IMG/VR virus record: IMGVR_UViG_3300025121_000014
Coordinates: 160,001 to 224,000 of that record
Direction: 5' to 3' (one strand)
From: a virus
Lineage: Duplodnaviria > Caudoviricetes
DNA length: 64,000 nucleotides
Shown: positions 34,355 to 47,047 of the stretch, piece by piece
How the letters are laid out: the number at the start of each line of letters is the position of its first letter
Position numbering within the stretch: position 1 is the stretch's first letter
Position numbers and translations under genes: made by a program
Notes under the pieces: generated by a model
Seen by the model: only the letters and a program-made list of their open reading frames with translations
Told to the model about the DNA's origin: nothing
Databases searched by the model: none

Positions 34355-35193
34355 ATATTTTTAATTTTTCCAAAATCTTTAATTTTTTCTATATATTCTA
34401 AAAATTCAATATTGTTCATTTTTTTAATAGATTCATATAATTTTTTATTTTCCTCTATTCTAGAATAATAATTATTTAAAACATCAAATTTATTTTTACC
34501 TGAAAAATGATATAAATGTAAACAATTATATTTATCATCATAAAAAATATTTAGTCCAAAATTTTTAATTTTTATATCTACAATATCATCTTCATGTGCA
34601 TAACCATAACAATTTTCATCAAAGCCTTTAATTTTTAAATAATCACTTTTTCTTATAAAAAATGAACCACCAGTCAAAACACCTAAATCTTTTCCCGAAG
34701 TAACTGTTTTCATAGATGATAATTTATTAAAATCTAATTCTTTTGTATAAAATAAATGACTATTTATGTAATTTAAATAACTTATACTAGAATATGGCTT
34801 TACTACATCAAATTCTTTACTATCAATTAATTCAATATATTCATATGCTTTTTTATGCACAACTATATCACCATCTTGAAATATTAAATTATCGTATTTA
34901 CAATTATTAACTCCAATATTATAACCCCAACCTTTATTAAAAACACCATCATTCTTAACAAAAATGTGATTGATTTCTATATTTTTATTAAATTTTATAT
35001 TATTTAACCAATCTATAGTAGATTTATTATCTTGTTCAACAATTACAATTTCGGTATTATATTTTAAATTATCATTAATATATTCTAATATCTTAATAAT
35101 ATTGAATTTTCTATAATTTTGATAATTTTTATAATTTACATTTTTATTAAAATGTGATTCTTTATAAGAAATTATAATTGATACGTTGTTCAT
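34351..35193 (-). CDS. GT2/GT7 (galactosyltransferase-like) glycosyltransferase
   Basis: FNKGWGYNIG, FQDGD and GFDENCYGYAHEDD. Confidence 0.82.
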   Translation of the reverse strand: MNNVSIIISYKESHFNKNVNYKNYQNYRKFNIIKILEYINDNLKYNTEIVIVEQDNKSTIDWLNNIKFNKNIEINHIFVKNDGVFNKGWGYNIGVNNCKYDNLIFQDGDIVVHKKAYEYIELIDSKEFDVVKPYSSISYLNYINSHLFYTKELDFNKLSSMKTVTSGKDLGVLTGGSFFIRKSDYLKIKGFDENCYGYAHEDDIVDIKIKNFGLNIFYDDKYNCLHLYHFSGKNKFDVLNNYYSRIEENKKLYESIKKMNNIEFLEYIEKIKDFGKIKNI

Positions 35194-35225
35194 ATAATAT
35201 ATATTACATAGAATCAGTTCTAAAC

Positions 35226-35253
35226 AAAAAAAAGGGATATTTAATCTCCCTTT
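35226..35253 (-). terminator. Rho-independent terminator at the end of the topoisomerase gene
   Basis: AAAGGGA/TCCCTTT stem followed by a T tract on the minus strand. Confidence 0.6.
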
Positions 35254-37388
35254 CTAAACTTTCGAACTTCTTTTTTCAGTTCTAATAAATCTTTATGCCA
35301 CATTTGTTCAATAGATATATCAGTAATTATTTTAATTTCTTTTTTTAATTCATCAAATTCCTCTTTTAATTTTACTAATTCTTCTTTTGATAATTTATAT
35401 AAAGGAATTGATAATAAATAATTATATGAATCTTCTATTTTATCTAATTTATTTGTATCTAAAGATAATAAAATTTTATCCATAGGAATGTTATTTATTA
35501 AAATTGTACCATTCAATACTAACTTAATAAATTTCATTATATTAGATAAACGTTTATATTTTAAATCCAATTTATTAAGAATATATTCTTTTCTATCAGT
35601 ATAATATACTATTCTATTATTATAAAAATCATCTATTATTTCATATTGATTTTCATATTTTTTAATTTTCCCTACAATATCAAATAAATGCATATTTGAC
35701 ATATTTAATTTAGAAGTTAATTCAAAAATATTATATAAATCTTCATCCGTATATGATTGTAAAATTTCTCTTGATATTCTAATTTTAATATTAACTTTTG
35801 TATCAGTACAATATTTAATATACGATTTAATTATCTTATCATCAATTAATTTATCTAATGTTAAATAATATTTATCATTCCAGACACCAATAGGTAATTC
35901 TGTTATATTTAAAGTCGTGGTATTAATTCTATTTATAATACCTTTAGTTATATAAACCTTATTATCTTTATCATAAATAATATCTCCTTTAAAACCTTCA
36001 TAAAATGGATTTAAATCAATGTTCTTTTTTTTATTATTTAATTTATTAATAATGTAATCAGTTAAATCTTCAATTTTAAAAGATGGTATAAAGGATGACC
36101 AACCAGTACCTACACCATAGCTACCATTTAATAATATATTTGGAATAATTGGAATATAAAAAACTGGTTCTACTATTTTTCCATCATTTTCAGAATATTT
36201 TATAATATTATTATCAACTTGCATAAAAATTAGTTTGGTTATATCTCTTAATTTAGTATGAATATAACGAGGTGCTGAACTATCTTTACCACCAGATAAT
36301 CTTGTACCAAATCCACCAATAGGTTCAATTAAACTTATATTGTTAGAACCAACATAATCTTGAGCCATATTTATAATACCTTGATCTAATGAAGCAGATC
36401 CATGATGGTATTCCGCATTAGCTTTAACATGACCAAATAATTCACCGACATTTAATTCACCTCTATTTCCTAATTTAAATAAAGTGAATAATATTTTTCT
36501 CTGTGAAGGTTTTAATCCATCCATAACTGAAGATATATTACGAATATTATCTGCCATACTATATTCTATAAATTCATCATTCATAAAAGAATCATATGTA
36601 GTTTTACCAACAAATTTATCTACAATATTATTAGGATTATAATTTAATAACCATTCTTTTCTATCATCGGCTCTTTTATTTCTAAAAGCCAAATCAATTA
36701 AATCTTCTGTTTTTTCAGGATTTTCATAATTAAATTTAATAAGATGTTTAGATATATTTTTAAAAAATACTTTACCAACTCCTCTTTCAATTGTACCAAG
36801 ACCTTTATAATATTTTATATAATAACCTTTACCATTATCTGTAGTTTTTAACCAATGATTAAATTCTGATACTCTATAAAAGAATTTTTCAATTTTACCT
36901 TTTTTAGCTTTTGATATAGGTGTTACAAATTCATATAAAAAATCTATTTTTAATAATTCTGGCCAAAATGTATCAAATAAATTAATTAATAATCCTTTTA
37001 TATGATAACCATCTAGATCTGCGTCACTCATTATGACAACTTTACCATATCTTAAAGTTTTTATATTTTTATATTTTTTACCAAATTCTAAACCAAGAAT
37101 TTGCATTAAATTTTTTATTTCATCATTTTCTTTTATCTTTTTTAAAGTAGTGTCTCTTACATTTAATGGTTTTCCTTTTAATGGAAATGCACCATAATAA
37201 TCTCTACCAGTTTCAGAAAATCCAGCAATTGCAAGAGATTTAGCGGAATTGTGAGAAATTATACCATTTGATAATGTAAAACTTTCATCATCTACCGATA
37301 TATCAACCATATTTACATATTCATCGTTATATTCAATAGAATCTATTTCTACTAATTCCAAAAAATTATTTTCTATCATTATTTTCAA
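35241..37388 (-). CDS. Type IIA topoisomerase, C-terminal part (TOPRIM + GyrA-like), preceded by intein C-fragment
   Basis: ...IISHN|SAKSLA, PLKGKPLNV, MSDADLDG, YYKGLGT, DGLKPSQRK, YHHGSASL and SAPRY (active Tyr). Confidence 0.93.
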   Translation of the reverse strand: MKIMIENNFLELVEIDSIEYNDEYVNMVDISVDDESFTLSNGIISHNSAKSLAIAGFSETGRDYYGAFPLKGKPLNVRDTTLKKIKENDEIKNLMQILGLEFGKKYKNIKTLRYGKVVIMSDADLDGYHIKGLLINLFDTFWPELLKIDFLYEFVTPISKAKKGKIEKFFYRVSEFNHWLKTTDNGKGYYIKYYKGLGTIERGVGKVFFKNISKHLIKFNYENPEKTEDLIDLAFRNKRADDRKEWLLNYNPNNIVDKFVGKTTYDSFMNDEFIEYSMADNIRNISSVMDGLKPSQRKILFTLFKLGNRGELNVGELFGHVKANAEYHHGSASLDQGIINMAQDYVGSNNISLIEPIGGFGTRLSGGKDSSAPRYIHTKLRDITKLIFMQVDNNIIKYSENDGKIVEPVFYIPIIPNILLNGSYGVGTGWSSFIPSFKIEDLTDYIINKLNNKKKNIDLNPFYEGFKGDIIYDKDNKVYITKGIINRINTTTLNITELPIGVWNDKYYLTLDKLIDDKIIKSYIKYCTDTKVNIKIRISREILQSYTDEDLYNIFELTSKLNMSNMHLFDIVGKIKKYENQYEIIDDFYNNRIVYYTDRKEYILNKLDLKYKRLSNIMKFIKLVLNGTILINNIPMDKILLSLDTNKLDKIEDSYNYLLSIPLYKLSKEELVKLKEEFDELKKEIKIITDISIEQMWHKDLLELKKEVRKFRKGD
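37248..37388 (-). mobile_element. Split intein C-terminal fragment (IntC, 47 aa)
   Basis: Block F VNMVDISVDDESFTLSNG; block G IISHN followed by Ser+1. Confidence 0.88.
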
Positions 37389-38649
37389 TTTTATTTTGTA
37401 TAAATTTTATTATTTTATCTTTTTTATCTTTTTCAAAATCCCATATAACTAATACATCAAAATTATTATTTTTACATAAATTTAATTTATCGATATCTTT
37501 ATTATAAACATCTTCTGCATTTAATTCTTTATTAAACGGATGTTCCCAATTATCCCATTCGTCTTTAGTGTAAATTTCTTTATTAGGATGCCAAATTTTA
37601 CCATTATATTCAATAATAATTTTATAATCTAATAAAGTATAATCATAAAAATATATTAAATCTTTATCATTATTTTTTAAAAAATATTCGTTTTTACCAT
37701 ACAAACCATTGATGTTTAAATATTTATCAACATCTTTAAATATTTTTATTGATTCATTTGAATAAAAATTACTATTTCGTATTTTACTTAGCCAATTATT
37801 TCTTCTGATAATACCATCTATTTCTCCATATAATTTAGTGAAATTATCTACTGATAAATAATAACTTTTTTGTGATATATAATCGTTATACTTTTTATTA
37901 CCATCTATACCATATCTAAATATAAAACTATTCAATGTTTGTTTACATTTATTTGTTTTTATTCTGAATTCAAATAATGCTAATTCCTCATTTCCTTTAT
38001 TTTTTTTTATAAAATGTTGTAATGACGAACTATCTTTCTTACTGCATATTTCATTAAATATTTTTGTTCCTTTTATTTCTCCATACTTTTCAATATAATA
38101 ACTAATAGTATGTGAATATTTTAATTTATTTTTAAAATTGTTAAACTTAGTTTTATCTCCATTAAAAAAATTCATATCTCTTGTTTGATATTTTTTATAT
38201 ATTTTTATATCTTTATGGTTTTCTTTATAAAATGGAGATTTATTCCTTTTATGAATAAATTCTAAAGCATCATCTTTAGATAAATTTAATGATTTGGATA
38301 CAAATTCAACTGAGTTTGGATTTAGTTTTTTCCCATAACAATTTTTATTTTTACCCCTACAATAAAATTTACTGTAAATAATTTTAACATCTTTTATTAA
38401 ACACCCATTTTTATATTTTTCTAATTCGTATTCTAATTCATAATCTGAATATGAATCACAAAAACCACATTTTTTTATTTCTTTATTTAAATAATTAATT
38501 AAATAAAAATCTAATGTAAAATTAAATTTTTTAATAAGTGATAATTTTAATGATTGTATAATTCTTTTTTTATTATAATTATTAGAATCTATAAATGATT
38601 TTATAGACATTCTAACATATTTATCGTTCATTATGTAATATACATTCAT
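37366..38649 (-). CDS. Free-standing putative homing endonuclease (Vsr/DUF559-like C-terminus)
   Basis: YFYDY...IIIEYNGKIWH nuclease motif, repeated (Y/F)xxxYG units and Cys pairs. It lies in a different frame between IntN and IntC, with its own AATATATAA motif at 38654-38662. Confidence 0.75.
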   Translation of the reverse strand: MNVYYIMNDKYVRMSIKSFIDSNNYNKKRIIQSLKLSLIKKFNFTLDFYLINYLNKEIKKCGFCDSYSDYELEYELEKYKNGCLIKDVKIIYSKFYCRGKNKNCYGKKLNPNSVEFVSKSLNLSKDDALEFIHKRNKSPFYKENHKDIKIYKKYQTRDMNFFNGDKTKFNNFKNKLKYSHTISYYIEKYGEIKGTKIFNEICSKKDSSSLQHFIKKNKGNEELALFEFRIKTNKCKQTLNSFIFRYGIDGNKKYNDYISQKSYYLSVDNFTKLYGEIDGIIRRNNWLSKIRNSNFYSNESIKIFKDVDKYLNINGLYGKNEYFLKNNDKDLIYFYDYTLLDYKIIIEYNGKIWHPNKEIYTKDEWDNWEHPFNKELNAEDVYNKDIDKLNLCKNNNFDVLVIWDFEKDKKDKIIKFIQNKIENNDRK

Positions 38650-38696
38650 ACCGTTATATATTAATTATTGAAAATGTGTTTTTGATGGAAGGTATA

Positions 38697-39206
38697 TTAT
38701 ATTTTATCATAATCAACTAAAAAATGTATATTTTTATCAATTTTATCACATTCTAACATAATTATAGAATTATCATTAATATTAAAAACTGAAAATTTAT
38801 GATTATTTGTAGATAGTATTTCATCACCATCGATATAAATAATTTTATTAAATTTATCATCTTTAATATTTTTTATATCATTAATTTTTACTAATCCATT
38901 AAAATTAATATTTTTATTTATTATCATTTTATGTATTTTTATATCTATATCTTTTGTTCTTACAAAAAGAAAATCATTTTTAATTTTATCATAAATAAAC
39001 CATTTATGATTTTCTGAACATATTAATATTTCACCGTTTTTTAAATTTATGGTAACACTTTTTTCTATTTTTTTTGTAATATTTGTGATTAATTTAAAAT
39101 TTGATTTATGTGTAATTACAACATCATCTAATTTAACATCTTTTATTTTAATTTTTAATTTTTCACTATCTCTTAATATTGTAATTAATGTTTCTTCATA
39201 TAAACA
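38697..39206 (-). mobile_element. Split intein N-terminal fragment (IntN, 169 aa)
   Basis: Block A CLYEETLI begins at Cys431. Block-B-like CSENHKW is followed 69 aa later by STNNHKF. The ORF ends with TAA. Confidence 0.85.
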
Positions 39207-40496
39207 ATCACCTTCAGTTAAAAATAAATGACATTTTTCAGATTCAACTGTTCCTGCTTTATTTGCATCAACTAATTTATCTACTTTAACTTTTTTAAAT
39301 ACATCTTTATTTAATTCTTTTTGTAATTGAATTTGATCTTTCATCATAGATAATTTAATTAAATCATCTAACATATCAGACTTAGATATTCTTTTAATTA
39401 TAGCATCATTTAATTGAACATCTTTTAATTGTCCATTTAATTTTGATGTTAAATTTTCTTTTGTTTGATTATCAAATACTGGATTTACTATTTTTGAATT
39501 AATAAATATTAAAAATCTATTTTTAATATCATTAGGTCTTATATTAATACCCTTATTAGTTTTAGTTAATAAGTCTTTTACTGCATTAACTACATTACTA
39601 GTTACAAAATTAACATGTGTTCCACCAAAAATTGTTGATATACCATTTACCATACTAACATGTGTAAATAAGTCAGATGGTGATTTAGCAACACCAATTT
39701 CCCAAAAATCATTTATTTTTTCATAAAATATTTCACCATTAGGTTCAATAAATAATTTCATATAATCTCTAAATGATCTTACTGGAATCATTACACCATT
39801 TAAAAATACTTTAACGGTAGGATTATAAGCCGCTATATCAATGACACGTTTTACTAATAATGATTTTGTTTGTTCATCGATAGTAATCATATCAAATTTT
39901 TCAAAATCTGGTTTATATGTTATTTTAGTAAAACTTTTTTTAGATTTTCTTGTGACTGGTTTAGTCATGGATGACATATTTTTAGAAAATTTTTGACGAT
40001 ATACTTTTTTACCATCAGCAGTTTCTACTTCAAACATAGTTGAATAAATATTAGTGAGTTTTGCACCATAACCGTTACGTCCACCTACAAACCGTTCTTC
40101 ATCATCTGAATAATTTTCACCTGTAAGTAAATGACCAAAAACCATTTCTGGAATGTAAATTTTTTCTTTACCGTGAATTTCAACTGGAATCCCAGGTCCA
40201 TCATTTTCAACAGAAATAATTTCTTCATCTATATTAATTTTAATATAAGATACTTGACCTGTTCTTATAGCATGGTCAGATGCATTAGTAATAATTTCAT
40301 CAAATATTTTAATAAAACCTGGATTATAAGTTACTGTCTTATATTCCATTTTAACTTCTTTTATATTATCATAATCAGTAGCAACAAAAATATTTTTAGT
40401 ATCCATTTGTATACTCCCTATATAAGTTTCTGATCGTTTTAAAATATGCTCTTTATGAGTTAATTTCACGTATCTATCTTCAACTTTTTTTACCAT
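38697..40496 (-). CDS. Type IIA topoisomerase, N-terminal ATPase part fused to intein N-fragment
   Basis: HILKRSETYIGS, IFDEIITNASD, ENDGPGIP, GGRNGYGAKLTN and KLVDAN...LFLTEGD|CLYEET. Confidence 0.93.
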   Translation of the reverse strand: MVKKVEDRYVKLTHKEHILKRSETYIGSIQMDTKNIFVATDYDNIKEVKMEYKTVTYNPGFIKIFDEIITNASDHAIRTGQVSYIKINIDEEIISVENDGPGIPVEIHGKEKIYIPEMVFGHLLTGENYSDDEERFVGGRNGYGAKLTNIYSTMFEVETADGKKVYRQKFSKNMSSMTKPVTRKSKKSFTKITYKPDFEKFDMITIDEQTKSLLVKRVIDIAAYNPTVKVFLNGVMIPVRSFRDYMKLFIEPNGEIFYEKINDFWEIGVAKSPSDLFTHVSMVNGISTIFGGTHVNFVTSNVVNAVKDLLTKTNKGINIRPNDIKNRFLIFINSKIVNPVFDNQTKENLTSKLNGQLKDVQLNDAIIKRISKSDMLDDLIKLSMMKDQIQLQKELNKDVFKKVKVDKLVDANKAGTVESEKCHLFLTEGDCLYEETLITILRDSEKLKIKIKDVKLDDVVITHKSNFKLITNITKKIEKSVTINLKNGEILICSENHKWFIYDKIKNDFLFVRTKDIDIKIHKMIINKNINFNGLVKINDIKNIKDDKFNKIIYIDGDEILSTNNHKFSVFNINDNSIIMLECDKIDKNIHFLVDYDKI

Positions 40497-40681
40497 ATTT
40501 TAAAATTCTTGTATTTTTTATTTCATTTCAGTATATATAGTATTTTTCATAGTTTGTTTAACTAATCAAATGAACTATACATTAATTCTAATATTTTTCT
40601 ATATCTACCATAATTACTTATTTTACATTATTATATTTAAAAAGTTTAATATTTCATATATAATATATAATATATAATATT

Positions 40682-41023
40682 ATGAAAATAATTAACAATG
40701 ATATGTTATATTTACAAAATTTTAAAAACTATATTATGAATGAAAATATAAATCAACATACTGATGACGAAAATTATATTACAAAAATTATTAAAAATAT
40801 AGATAAAGATTTTAATATTGTTTTTACTGATAGACAAATAATATTATCTATACAAAATCGATTTAATAGAGATAATCCTGTTTCATTTTCGAAAATGAAA
40901 AAATGTATGGAAAAATTTATAATAATCGAAAAAATATTAAAATATAATAATTTAATAAATTCTGATCCAGATGCTATAGAATTAGATACCTATAGAATTA
41001 AAGCTAAATACACTTTTAATTAA
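40682..41023 (+). CDS. Hypothetical protein with CTS-like N-terminus
   Basis: (M)LYLQNFKNYIMNE; alternative start at 40703; preceded by three tandem ATATATAAT-type motifs. Confidence 0.55.
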   Translation: MKIINNDMLYLQNFKNYIMNENINQHTDDENYITKIIKNIDKDFNIVFTDRQIILSIQNRFNRDNPVSFSKMKKCMEKFIIIEKILKYNNLINSDPDAIELDTYRIKAKYTFN

Positions 41024-45562: not shown

Positions 45563-46183
45563 ATGAAAAAAGTATCTGTAATAATGGCTAGTTATCTCGG
45601 GTTCTACCCAGGAAGAAATACAAATCCAGATAAAAAATTTATAAGAGCAGTTAATAGTTTTTTAAAACAAACATATGAAAATAAAGAACTTGTAATAATA
45701 GCCGATGGTTGTAAGCAAACAGAAGAAATATATGAAAAATTTTTTAAACAATATGATAATATAAAATTAGTTTCTATACCTAAACAACAAATATATTCAG
45801 GAGAATGTAGAAATGCTGGATTAAACATAGCTACTGGTGAAATAATATCTTATTTAGATAACGATGATGTATTAGGTAAAAAACATTTAGAAACAATTAT
45901 GGAACAATTTACCGATGATGTTGATTTAGTTTATTACGATGATTATCTTGTTATGAGTAAAGATTTTAAAACTTTACAAAAAAGAATAGTTGAAACAAGA
46001 TATGGATCAATAGGAACTTCATCTATTACTCATAAAAATGTAGATTGGATCAGATGGCGTACTGGTTATGGACACGATTGGTTATTTGTGCAAGAATGTA
46101 TTATGAAAGGTATGCAGTTTAAAAAGTTAGAAAAAACACCAGCTTATTTAGTGGCACATTACGGTGGAGGTGGTGATTTTTAA
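45563..46183 (+). CDS. GT2 glycosyltransferase
   Basis: VSVIMASY, IIADG, RNAGL, YLDNDD and GHDW. Confidence 0.88.
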   Translation: MKKVSVIMASYLGFYPGRNTNPDKKFIRAVNSFLKQTYENKELVIIADGCKQTEEIYEKFFKQYDNIKLVSIPKQQIYSGECRNAGLNIATGEIISYLDNDDVLGKKHLETIMEQFTDDVDLVYYDDYLVMSKDFKTLQKRIVETRYGSIGTSSITHKNVDWIRWRTGYGHDWLFVQECIMKGMQFKKLEKTPAYLVAHYGGGGDF

Positions 46184-47047
46184 TTTTTCTAAAATATTAT
46201 CATTATATCTAATCCTAATTAAATGAATATTGTTATTTTTACAATATTCATTTTTTATTTTATCTCGTTTTTGTTGTTCATTAAATTTATTAATACCACC
46301 AAAAAAATCAATAGGTTTATAATGCTGTTCTCCGTCATATTCAATACATATATTTTTTTCAGGTAAATAAAAATCAAAAGATAAAGAAAAAATATTTTTA
46401 CAATCATCAAATTTTTTTTGAGTTTCAAATTTTATATTATTATGTTCTAATATTTTTTTAATTTCTATTTCACCTCTACTTCTACTACATATAGGACAAC
46501 CATTTCCTTGTATGTGATTGTCTGGTCTTACTTTAAATTCACCATGTTCAGAACATATTATAATAATTTTTGTTTTATTATTTGTATAATTCACTTTTGA
46601 GTAGTTATATTTATTATTATGAATTTTATTAGAATTTATTATAAATTCGTCTTTTTTGTTATATTTGCCACTACATATAATACAACCATATCCAGATAAA
46701 TGATCATTAGGTTTTTGTTCAAAATCACCATGTTTTGGACAATTTATAATAACTTTTGTTTTTGCGGTCTTATATACAACTTTATCATAGTTATATTTAT
46801 TATTATGAATTTCGTTAGATTTTTGGATAAAATTTTTAATATTATTTTTACCATTATTAAAACATAGTGGGCAACTAATACCGTTAATATGAATATATGG
46901 ATATTGTTCTATTATTCCATGTGTTGGGCAAATATATTTAATTTTAGTTCTCCTATTAATATAATTTGATATATTATAATCATATTTATCACCATGTTTT
47001 TCTTTTGATTTTTTTATAAATTCTTCTGTTGTTAATTTTTTAGGCAT
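46148..47047 (-). CDS. Putative homing endonuclease (repeated HxxKYxY/Cxx zinc-ribbon units + DUF559-like nuclease)
   Basis: Three FIxKSxxxHxxKYxY..CxxHG..GxxCxxC repeats; FDFYLP...IEYDGEQHY. Confidence 0.8.
   Translation of the reverse strand: MPKKLTTEEFIKKSKEKHGDKYDYNISNYINRRTKIKYICPTHGIIEQYPYIHINGISCPLCFNNGKNNIKNFIQKSNEIHNNKYNYDKVVYKTAKTKVIINCPKHGDFEQKPNDHLSGYGCIICSGKYNKKDEFIINSNKIHNNKYNYSKVNYTNNKTKIIIICSEHGEFKVRPDNHIQGNGCPICSRSRGEIEIKKILEHNNIKFETQKKFDDCKNIFSLSFDFYLPEKNICIEYDGEQHYKPIDFFGGINKFNEQQKRDKIKNEYCKNNNIHLIRIRYNDNILEKLKITTSTVMCH

Follow-up and report, generated by a model that had tools for sequence, protein, structure and literature searches.

A type IIA topoisomerase gene of a jumbo phage, very probably fractured by a naturally split intein with a free-standing Vsr-like endonuclease gene between the halves

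Introduction

Naturally split inteins are known from fractured genes, for which Dassa et al. 2009 (PMC2677866) listed gp41-1 to gp41-8, NrdJ-1, NrdA-2, IMPDH-1, DnaE, ligase and terminase as hosts. A Vsr-like endonuclease family is present in half of these original fractured genes (PMC2677866), and the composite EDxHD catalytic motif was defined there and in work on the endonuclease I-Bth0305I (PMC2677866 and PMC3239194). Contiguous inteins are known in the topoisomerases GyrA, GyrB, Top6B, TopA and reverse gyrase (PMC4760082). Here, a locus is described that very probably represents a fractured gene for a single-chain (gp39-gp52 fused) type IIA topoisomerase, with a split intein at EGD/SA in the TOPRIM domain and trans-splicing of the two products. 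It lies in IMG/VR virus record IMGVR_UViG_3300025121_000014, of which positions 160,001 to 224,000 were analysed; this 64,000-nt stretch is called the window, and all coordinates refer to it.

An original prediction, made from the letters of the window, had compared the locus with the fractured genes for gp41, NrdJ and IMPDH, and its architecture does match that described by Dassa et al. 2009 (PMC2677866). The prediction also knew of no such architecture for topoisomerase II. This agrees with the list of Dassa et al. 2009, which has no topoisomerase, and the literature searched, of which coverage was incomplete, did not describe split inteins in type II topoisomerases, so that this is absence of evidence only.

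Organization of the locus

Three consecutive open reading frames (ORFs) of the topoisomerase locus are read from the sequence on the minus strand: an N gene, an endonuclease gene and a C gene (Table 1). The N gene encodes the N-terminal part of the host protein (N-extein) and the N-terminal intein half (IntN), and the C gene encodes the C-terminal intein half (IntC) and the C-extein. The N-extein is matched in Pfam by HATPase_c and DNA_gyraseB and, at E 6e-101, by PHROG 543 (T4 gp39-type large subunit), and it ends at LTEGD, the first half of the TOPRIM EGDSA motif. The predicted succession of FLTEGD, a Cys-starting IntN of 169 aa and a stop codon is read from the sequence in three assemblies. 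The C gene encodes 712 aa from an ATG at 37379 (MIENNFLEL...) and shares its first 14 nt with the end of the endonuclease ORF. Its C-extein contains the rest of TOPRIM, TOPRIM_C and a gp52/GyrA-like breakage-reunion domain (Pfam Toprim, TOPRIM_C, DNA_topoisoIV at E 5e-100). A further match to the large-subunit PHROG 543 has E 2e-47, and PHROG 551 matches at E 2e-109.

Table 1. Features of the fractured topoisomerase locus in window coordinates.
Feature	Position	Strand	Length	Remarks
N gene	38697..40496	-	599 aa	430 aa N-extein + 169-aa IntN, then TAA
N-extein, topoisomerase II ATPase (GHKL) and transducer domains	39207..40496	-	430 aa	ends ...CHLFLTEGD
IntN	38697..39206	-	169 aa plus TAA stop	begins CLYEET (CLYEETLITILRD...)
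IntN tail, residues 101-169	38700..38906	-		internal duplicate, outside predicted IntC interface
Spacer	38650..38696	-	47 nt	between IntN stop and endonuclease ATG
Free-standing homing endonuclease gene (HEG)	37366..38649	-	427 aa	own ATG, different frame from N gene
Nuclease domain of endonuclease, residues 298-422	37384..37758	-		Vsr-like
IntC	37248..37379	-	44 aa	MIENNFLELVEIDSIEYNDEYVNMVDISVDDESFTLSNGIISHN; ends GIISHN
C-extein	35241..37247	-	668 aa plus stop	begins S+1-AKSLA (SAKSLAIAGF...)

Deletion of N-gene residues 431-599 and C-gene residues 1-44 leaves a protein of 1098 aa in which TEGD/SAK is restored. This sequence aligns without gaps across TEGD/SA to intein-less IMG/VR homologues of 1083-1200 aa (loci L004, L005, L007, L009 and L010), which fixes the exact extein junction and bears out the prediction that removal of the element gives back TEGDSAK in a chain of about 1098 aa (430+668).

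One correction concerns the start of the C gene, which had been placed at a TTG codon at 37388 to give an IntC of 47 aa. The ATG at 37379 is most likely the start, as judged from comparison of relatives, because all 12 relatives compared have an ATG at the homologous position, in the motif M-I/V-x-N-F-L-E-L, 0-8 codons past an in-frame stop. IntC therefore has 44 aa. A TTTATA(A/C)AAA-like motif lies 15-25 nt upstream of the IntC ATG in loci L011-L023, with the window copy at 37395-37404, and it is kept even in locus L019, which has no HEG and a gap of 24 nt. Across the window the motif is not enriched (15 copies vs 12.9 expected). It may drive expression of the C half, either as a promoter or as an element for translation initiation.

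Other signals were sought around the ORFs. Neither an Rfam family nor a terminator-like site was found in the spacer between IntN and the endonuclease gene, and a scan of 35000-41000 against Rfam gave no intron or other RNA family at E<=1. The promoter and terminator scan of this AT-rich DNA returned 79 sites vs 75 expected.

Intein identity and predicted association of the halves

Comparisons were based on a profile of 62 IntN sequences (A1), on 12 IntC sequences and on a profile of 52 endonuclease homologues (A2). Searches of Pfam and NCBIfam with single sequences gave no match for the endonuclease and almost none for IntN. With the IntN profile, the gp41-1 split intein is the only significant solved relative (E 3e-5), and C63-S64-E-N-H67 of IntN aligns with 'CSEEH' in block B of gp41-1. 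The NCBIfam model TIGR01443 (intein_Cterm) scores 17.2 bits on IntC vs a cutoff of 15.6. The comparison with intein profiles that the original prediction had proposed as a check thus comes out in favour of an intein.

Conservation of individual residues agrees with this. The block A nucleophile C1, directly after TEGD, is present in 62 of the 62 IntN sequences, as is H67 of block B, and S64 is found in 56/62. In IntC, the block F Asp (D26) and block G S42-H43-N44, followed by S+1 (S45) and A+2 (A46), are invariant among the 12 sequences. The Cys1/Ser+1 pair named in the original prediction is thus found throughout. The AlphaFold2 (AF2) model of IntN has a pLDDT of 90.9; its residues 1-100 form a canonical N-terminal Hint half, and the predicted structure matches Npu DnaE IntN (TMt 0.62-0.70), gp41-1, the Prp8 intein and Hedgehog Hint with Foldseek probabilities of 0.97-1.0. 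Sequence comparison thus supports identification of the element as a Hint/intein element with class 1 splicing residues.

IntN and IntC are predicted to associate. Complex prediction of IntN (A1) with IntC and 16 extein residues (A3) gave an ipSAE of 0.68 vs 0.01 for the best control. This mark is reached by 58 of 80 solved complexes and by 2 of 110 mismatched pairs, counts that are only rough, with own alignments used. The predicted interface lies between IntN residues 1-100 and IntC residues 6-43, where it would be expected in a canonical Hint fold that is divided at the endonuclease-insertion loop.

Such a strong predicted interface would also be consistent with intein halves that no longer splice and instead serve as association domains, by which the topoisomerase fragments are held together non-covalently. 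The T4 gp39 and gp60 fragments assemble non-covalently. Non-covalent association has also been described for the fragments of phage Aeh1 NrdA, which is split by a mobile endonuclease (PMC3045599). Phage topoisomerase II tolerates separate subunits, with many relatives having gp39-like and gp52-like genes apart, and the extra tail of IntN is atypical; both points favour non-covalent assembly. However, no variation is seen at residues that serve only the chemistry (62/62 sequences have C1 and H67, and 12/12 have the terminal H-N and Ser+1), and the break falls within the metal-binding TOPRIM EGDSA motif, where about 213 unremoved intein residues would probably disturb the active site. Permanent non-covalent assembly is consequently considered unlikely.

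Conservation and age of the split

The stop codon after IntN is not an assembly error, because independent assemblies and contigs reproduce both ORF junctions. Three independent assemblies (two from ENA, one from Logan) give an identical 599-aa product and, next to it, the same two ORFs of 427 and 712 aa, and groundwater and soil metagenome runs from several studies contain the stretch. Logan contigs of another groundwater run span 37183-38127 and 38106-39249 with 0 differences and include both junctions. Apparent 'joints' in reads that would represent HEG-less alleles were treated as spurious: their sides measure 21-24 nt and lie in low-complexity AT-rich DNA at 90% likeness.

The split is shared with many relatives. 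Among the best 120 N-gene homologues, 62 are N-extein+IntN proteins of about 600 aa in which TEGD is followed by Cys and which have the same end point; their IntN parts are 162-180 aa long and 25-72% identical to that of the window. A profile search of 1.84 billion representative proteins gave 98 representatives at E<=1e-10, of which nearly all strong ones have a C-terminal IntN. Twelve distinct loci, including that in the published 462-kb huge phage LR756500.1, where the split is unannotated, share the order N-extein/IntN, stop, (endonuclease), ATG-IntC/C-extein. An intact endonuclease homologue of 373-439 aa lies between the intein halves in 9/12 loci and usually overlaps the IntC ATG by a few bases. 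The other three have no intact HEG, with gaps of 24, 110 and 191 nt, and keep both intein halves: L016 has a 53-aa HEG remnant, and in L019 (24-nt gap) and L020 (110-nt gap) there is no HEG and the intein halves are intact.

Sequence divergence among the 12 loci differs between the parts. IntC is 51-76% identical to that of the window (64-76% in 10/12 loci) vs 31-55% for C-extein segments. IntN identity (28-58%) is similar to that of the N-extein (26-53%), and endonuclease matches have 30-43% identity. Non-synonymous divergence (dN) is 0.12-0.23 in the pairs that come first in the output sorted by synonymous divergence (dS), with dS saturated for all pairs and the ratio not quantifiable. These comparisons suggest that exteins and intein halves are under purifying selection. 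The gene is thus genuinely split, with a split that is old and maintained, and the fractured topoisomerase II arrangement is common, not rare, among metagenomic jumbo/huge phages.

Age and conservation bear on a second alternative, in which a once-contiguous intein with a nested endonuclease was broken by a stop and a frameshift in this lineage, and the topoisomerase gene is non-functional and decaying. The two halves share a frame in the window, and the HEG is degraded or lost in some relatives, as decay would have it. Yet all three ORFs are intact in the window and in most relatives, the positions of the IntN stop and IntC ATG are conserved in dozens of lineages at 25-70% IntN identity, and the exteins and intein halves have the signature of purifying selection noted above. 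Frames also vary between lineages: relative to IntN, the IntC reading frame can be any of the three. The original prediction correctly noted a common frame for the two halves in the window, which is accidental. Decay is already largely refuted by conservation and is very unlikely.

The halves could also be joined before or during translation, through a group I/II intron with an endonuclease or ribosomal bypass of the T4 gene 60 kind, or the stop could be a sequencing or assembly artefact. In T4, the ribosome bypasses 50 nt when it translates topoisomerase gene 60. Vsr-like endonucleases also reside in group I introns (PMC2677866, PMC3239194), which gives the intron some plausibility. The Rfam scan of 35000-41000 speaks against this, as do the HEG-less relatives, in which 24-191 nt separate the IntN stop from the IntC ATG, 24 nt being too short for an intron. 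Every IntC has its own ATG directly past an in-frame stop, and identical sequence in independent assemblies and contigs contradicts an artefact. This group of explanations is extremely unlikely; the RNA intron, the frameshift and the assembly error, each of which the original prediction had named as grounds for abandoning it, have not been borne out by Rfam, by the separate ATG of each IntC or by the assemblies.

Because the split is conserved, frames vary, assemblies are identical and Rfam gives no match, assembly error, recent pseudogene formation, in-frame readthrough and an intron are excluded. Trans-splicing therefore remains as the explanation, with non-covalent assembly as a serious but weaker rival.

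The endonuclease between the halves

In the AF2 model of the 427-aa endonuclease (pLDDT 94), a Cys-rich beta module at the N-terminus is followed by long helical repeats (KYG-type) and by a C-terminal alpha/beta domain. Residues 298-422 superpose on I-Bth0305I (3r3p_A) with a VIA Z score of 10.1, a root-mean-square deviation of 2.6 A over 93 aa and 26% identity, and on Vsr (1vsr) with Z 9.5. The A2 profile matches I-Bth0305I (3r3p) at E 0.007 and Vsr at E about 0.2 over the catalytic core; a search of the Protein Data Bank (PDB) with the single endonuclease sequence gave nothing meaningful. PHROG 22677 also matches the protein. Candidate catalytic residues are D336 (52/52 homologues), E347 (52/52), H354 (49/52) and D385 (37/52, with K388), which occupy the positions of Vsr D51, F62, H69 and D97 in the profile alignment. 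On the basis of the match to the Vsr-type fold and the composite catalytic motif, sequence and model identify the endonuclease as a putative member of the Vsr-like 'EDxHD' homing endonuclease family. The original prediction of a 427-aa Vsr-like endonuclease in another frame between the halves is upheld by this structural match and the conserved D/E/H/D residues.

Two other free-standing homing-endonuclease-like genes are found in the window. The one at 59685..61121 (+) encodes a Vsr-like protein of 478 aa (PHROG 3339 'homing endonuclease', E 4e-122) with DUF7487 and, at its C-terminus, a Mom-like domain. Paralogy of this protein with the topoisomerase HEG was considered and rejected, the common part being only the catalytic motif D..E.NG..WH (E 0.019). 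A 299-aa HNH endonuclease (PHROG 559) is encoded at 46148-47047 (-).

Proposed mechanism

In the proposed mechanism, an intein would have invaded the topoisomerase gene at the TOPRIM codons EGD/SA and would later have been split by a free-standing Vsr-like (EDxHD) HEG. One strand would then give three proteins: N-extein-IntN of 599 aa, the endonuclease of 427 aa and IntC-C-extein of 712 aa. IntN residues 1-100 and IntC would form one Hint fold and carry out class-1 trans-splicing, with an N-S acyl shift at Cys1, transesterification to Ser+1, cyclisation of IntC Asn44 and an O-N shift. The output would be a seamless topoisomerase II of 1098 aa with its TEGDSAK motif intact. The targets of the endonuclease would be topoisomerase alleles without the intein in co-infecting phages, with cleavage close to the insertion point, and repair would copy the entire IntN-HEG-IntC cassette (homing). 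We infer the splicing chemistry, the endonuclease activity and the endonuclease target from the features described above.

Several observations weigh against this reading. Pfam Intein_splicing barely detects the element (E 0.088, below cutoff), and a duplicated IntN tail of 69 aa is atypical for an intein. The complex score may be inflated if the model has memorized solved split inteins. For the C gene, neither a ribosome-binding site nor a promoter could be called clearly in this genome of 22% GC, and no RNA run is among the sequencing runs that contain the stretch. The suggestion in the original prediction that trans-splicing serves as an assembly checkpoint for replication is pure speculation.

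The IntN tail

IntN residues from about 123 to 164 duplicate residues from about 53 to 95 (hhalign probability 96%, E 2e-9). The tail holds a second S-T-x-x-H136-x-F138 motif, in which H136 and F138 are invariant. It is predicted with high confidence as beta structure and, in the modelled complex, stays clear of IntC. P0310, P0312 and P0316, which are relatives with the same insertion point and an IntN of about 100 aa, have no such tail. It is conceivable, though rather doubtful, that the tail serves within its own chain as a pseudo-partner or a regulator, by shielding IntN or by holding back trans-splicing until IntC is present. If so, split inteins with a control or chaperone module of their own would form a new architectural class, and phage topoisomerase II would show, as a model, how assembly of a replication enzyme is regulated. 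The tail is the sole feature that could lift the locus beyond another fractured gene.

Phage genome and relatives of the topoisomerase

The carrier of the gene is a T4-like jumbo phage from groundwater. A giant virus origin, which a GC content of about 22% and a single-chain 'eukaryote-like' topoisomerase II might suggest, is ruled out by the gp39/gp52 PHROGs, a baseplate wedge gene and huge-phage relatives. Of the records in the phage collection, those of the huge phages LR756500-504 are closest, and genes for a baseplate wedge protein, for HNH and Vsr-like homing endonucleases and for a Mom-domain protein lie in the window. One contig with the topoisomerase protein measures 232,944 bp. The topoisomerase C gene is followed directly downstream by a run of about 30 genes, all on the minus strand, that extends without interruption over about 7900-35200. 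Genes examined in this run encode a cytidylyltransferase-like protein, a UDP-GlcNAc 2-epimerase, a DegT-type aminotransferase, several GT2 glycosyltransferases and a Gly_transf_sug glycosyltransferase. A glycan-biosynthesis island of this size is unusual in a phage.

Many relatives (P0029, P0043, P0084-P0120, L016-L019 and L022-L024) include a T4-style topoisomerase II. These have a gp39-like subunit of about 600 aa that ends in ...KTDKVLKKK, with a separate gp52-like gene that is sometimes upstream on the opposite strand. Fusion and fission of the gp39 and gp52 subunits have happened within this phage group, and the window enzyme is a single fused chain of 1098 aa. Further downstream in the topoisomerase, in the TOPRIM or gp52 part, L019 (7868-8305, 3869-4456) and L036 (9628-12386) have another intein-like insertion and another Vsr-like endonuclease; in LR756500.1 this leaves the gene in at least four pieces. 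The topoisomerase gene is an insertion hotspot in these phages. IntN relatives also occur on contigs binned into prokaryotic metagenome-assembled genomes (MAGs), namely L037 (JALOAD010000014.1, 68.9-kb, in a Candidatus Muiribacterium halophilum MAG) and L038 (an archaeal MAG). Both contigs are probably of phage origin and entered the bins by carry-over; they could hint at hosts.

Comparison with known systems

In T4, topoisomerase II genes 39/60 represent a large subunit gene broken by a selfish endonuclease-bearing insertion, and the enzyme is functional. The T4 fragments are non-covalent, have no intein and are broken at a more C-terminal position than in the gene described here. The IntN of gp41-1 has 88 aa; in contrast, that of the topoisomerase has 169 aa with an internal duplication. 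A cyanobacterial GyrB intein presumably sits at the equivalent TOPRIM position, EGD/SAG.

The closest likeness is to the fractured genes of Dassa et al. 2009 (PMC2677866), in which the N-part of a gene with IntN is followed on the same strand by a free-standing GIY-YIG or Vsr-like endonuclease ORF and by IntC with the C-part, with overlapping ORF ends. Those genes likewise belong mainly to phages and encode enzymes of DNA metabolism, and variants without an endonuclease occur among them too. The host protein here is, unlike theirs, a type IIA topoisomerase; neither 'topoisomerase' nor 'gyrase' occurs in that paper (0 occurrences in PMC2677866). The topoisomerase family also goes beyond that set in spanning at least 60 sequence clusters, with complete loci. 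The endonuclease resembles I-Bth0305I and the EDxHD family (PMC3239194; 3r3p) in its Vsr-fold C-terminal nuclease with Asp, Glu (at the position of Vsr Phe62), His and Asp, in its N-terminal modular DNA-binding region and in its tie to intervening sequences. Unlike I-Bth0305I, it is free-standing between intein halves and not intron-encoded, and it has 427 aa with a Cys-rich beta module and long helical repeats, with weak sequence likeness (profile E 0.007). Type II topoisomerase subunits are recurrent intein hosts, as seen for the inteins of bacterial and archaeal GyrB and GyrA (PMC4760082). Unlike those cis-splicing elements, which occupy one ORF in cellular genes, the intein here is naturally split, lies in a phage T4-type enzyme and has a separate endonuclease gene.

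This comparison adds type IIA topoisomerase, very probably, to the proteins fractured by naturally split inteins. With at least 60 clusters that include HEG-bearing, HEG-degraded and HEG-free loci and long and short IntN forms, the family is suited to studies of how HEGs split inteins and how split inteins persist after HEG loss. Annotations of a '600-aa topoisomerase II' in jumbo/huge phages (e.g., LR756500.1) often represent N-extein+IntN precursors rather than gp39-type subunits. The two halves are a candidate new Cys1/Ser+1 split-intein pair with a natural IntC of 44 aa, probably orthogonal to the gp41, NrdJ and DnaE sets.

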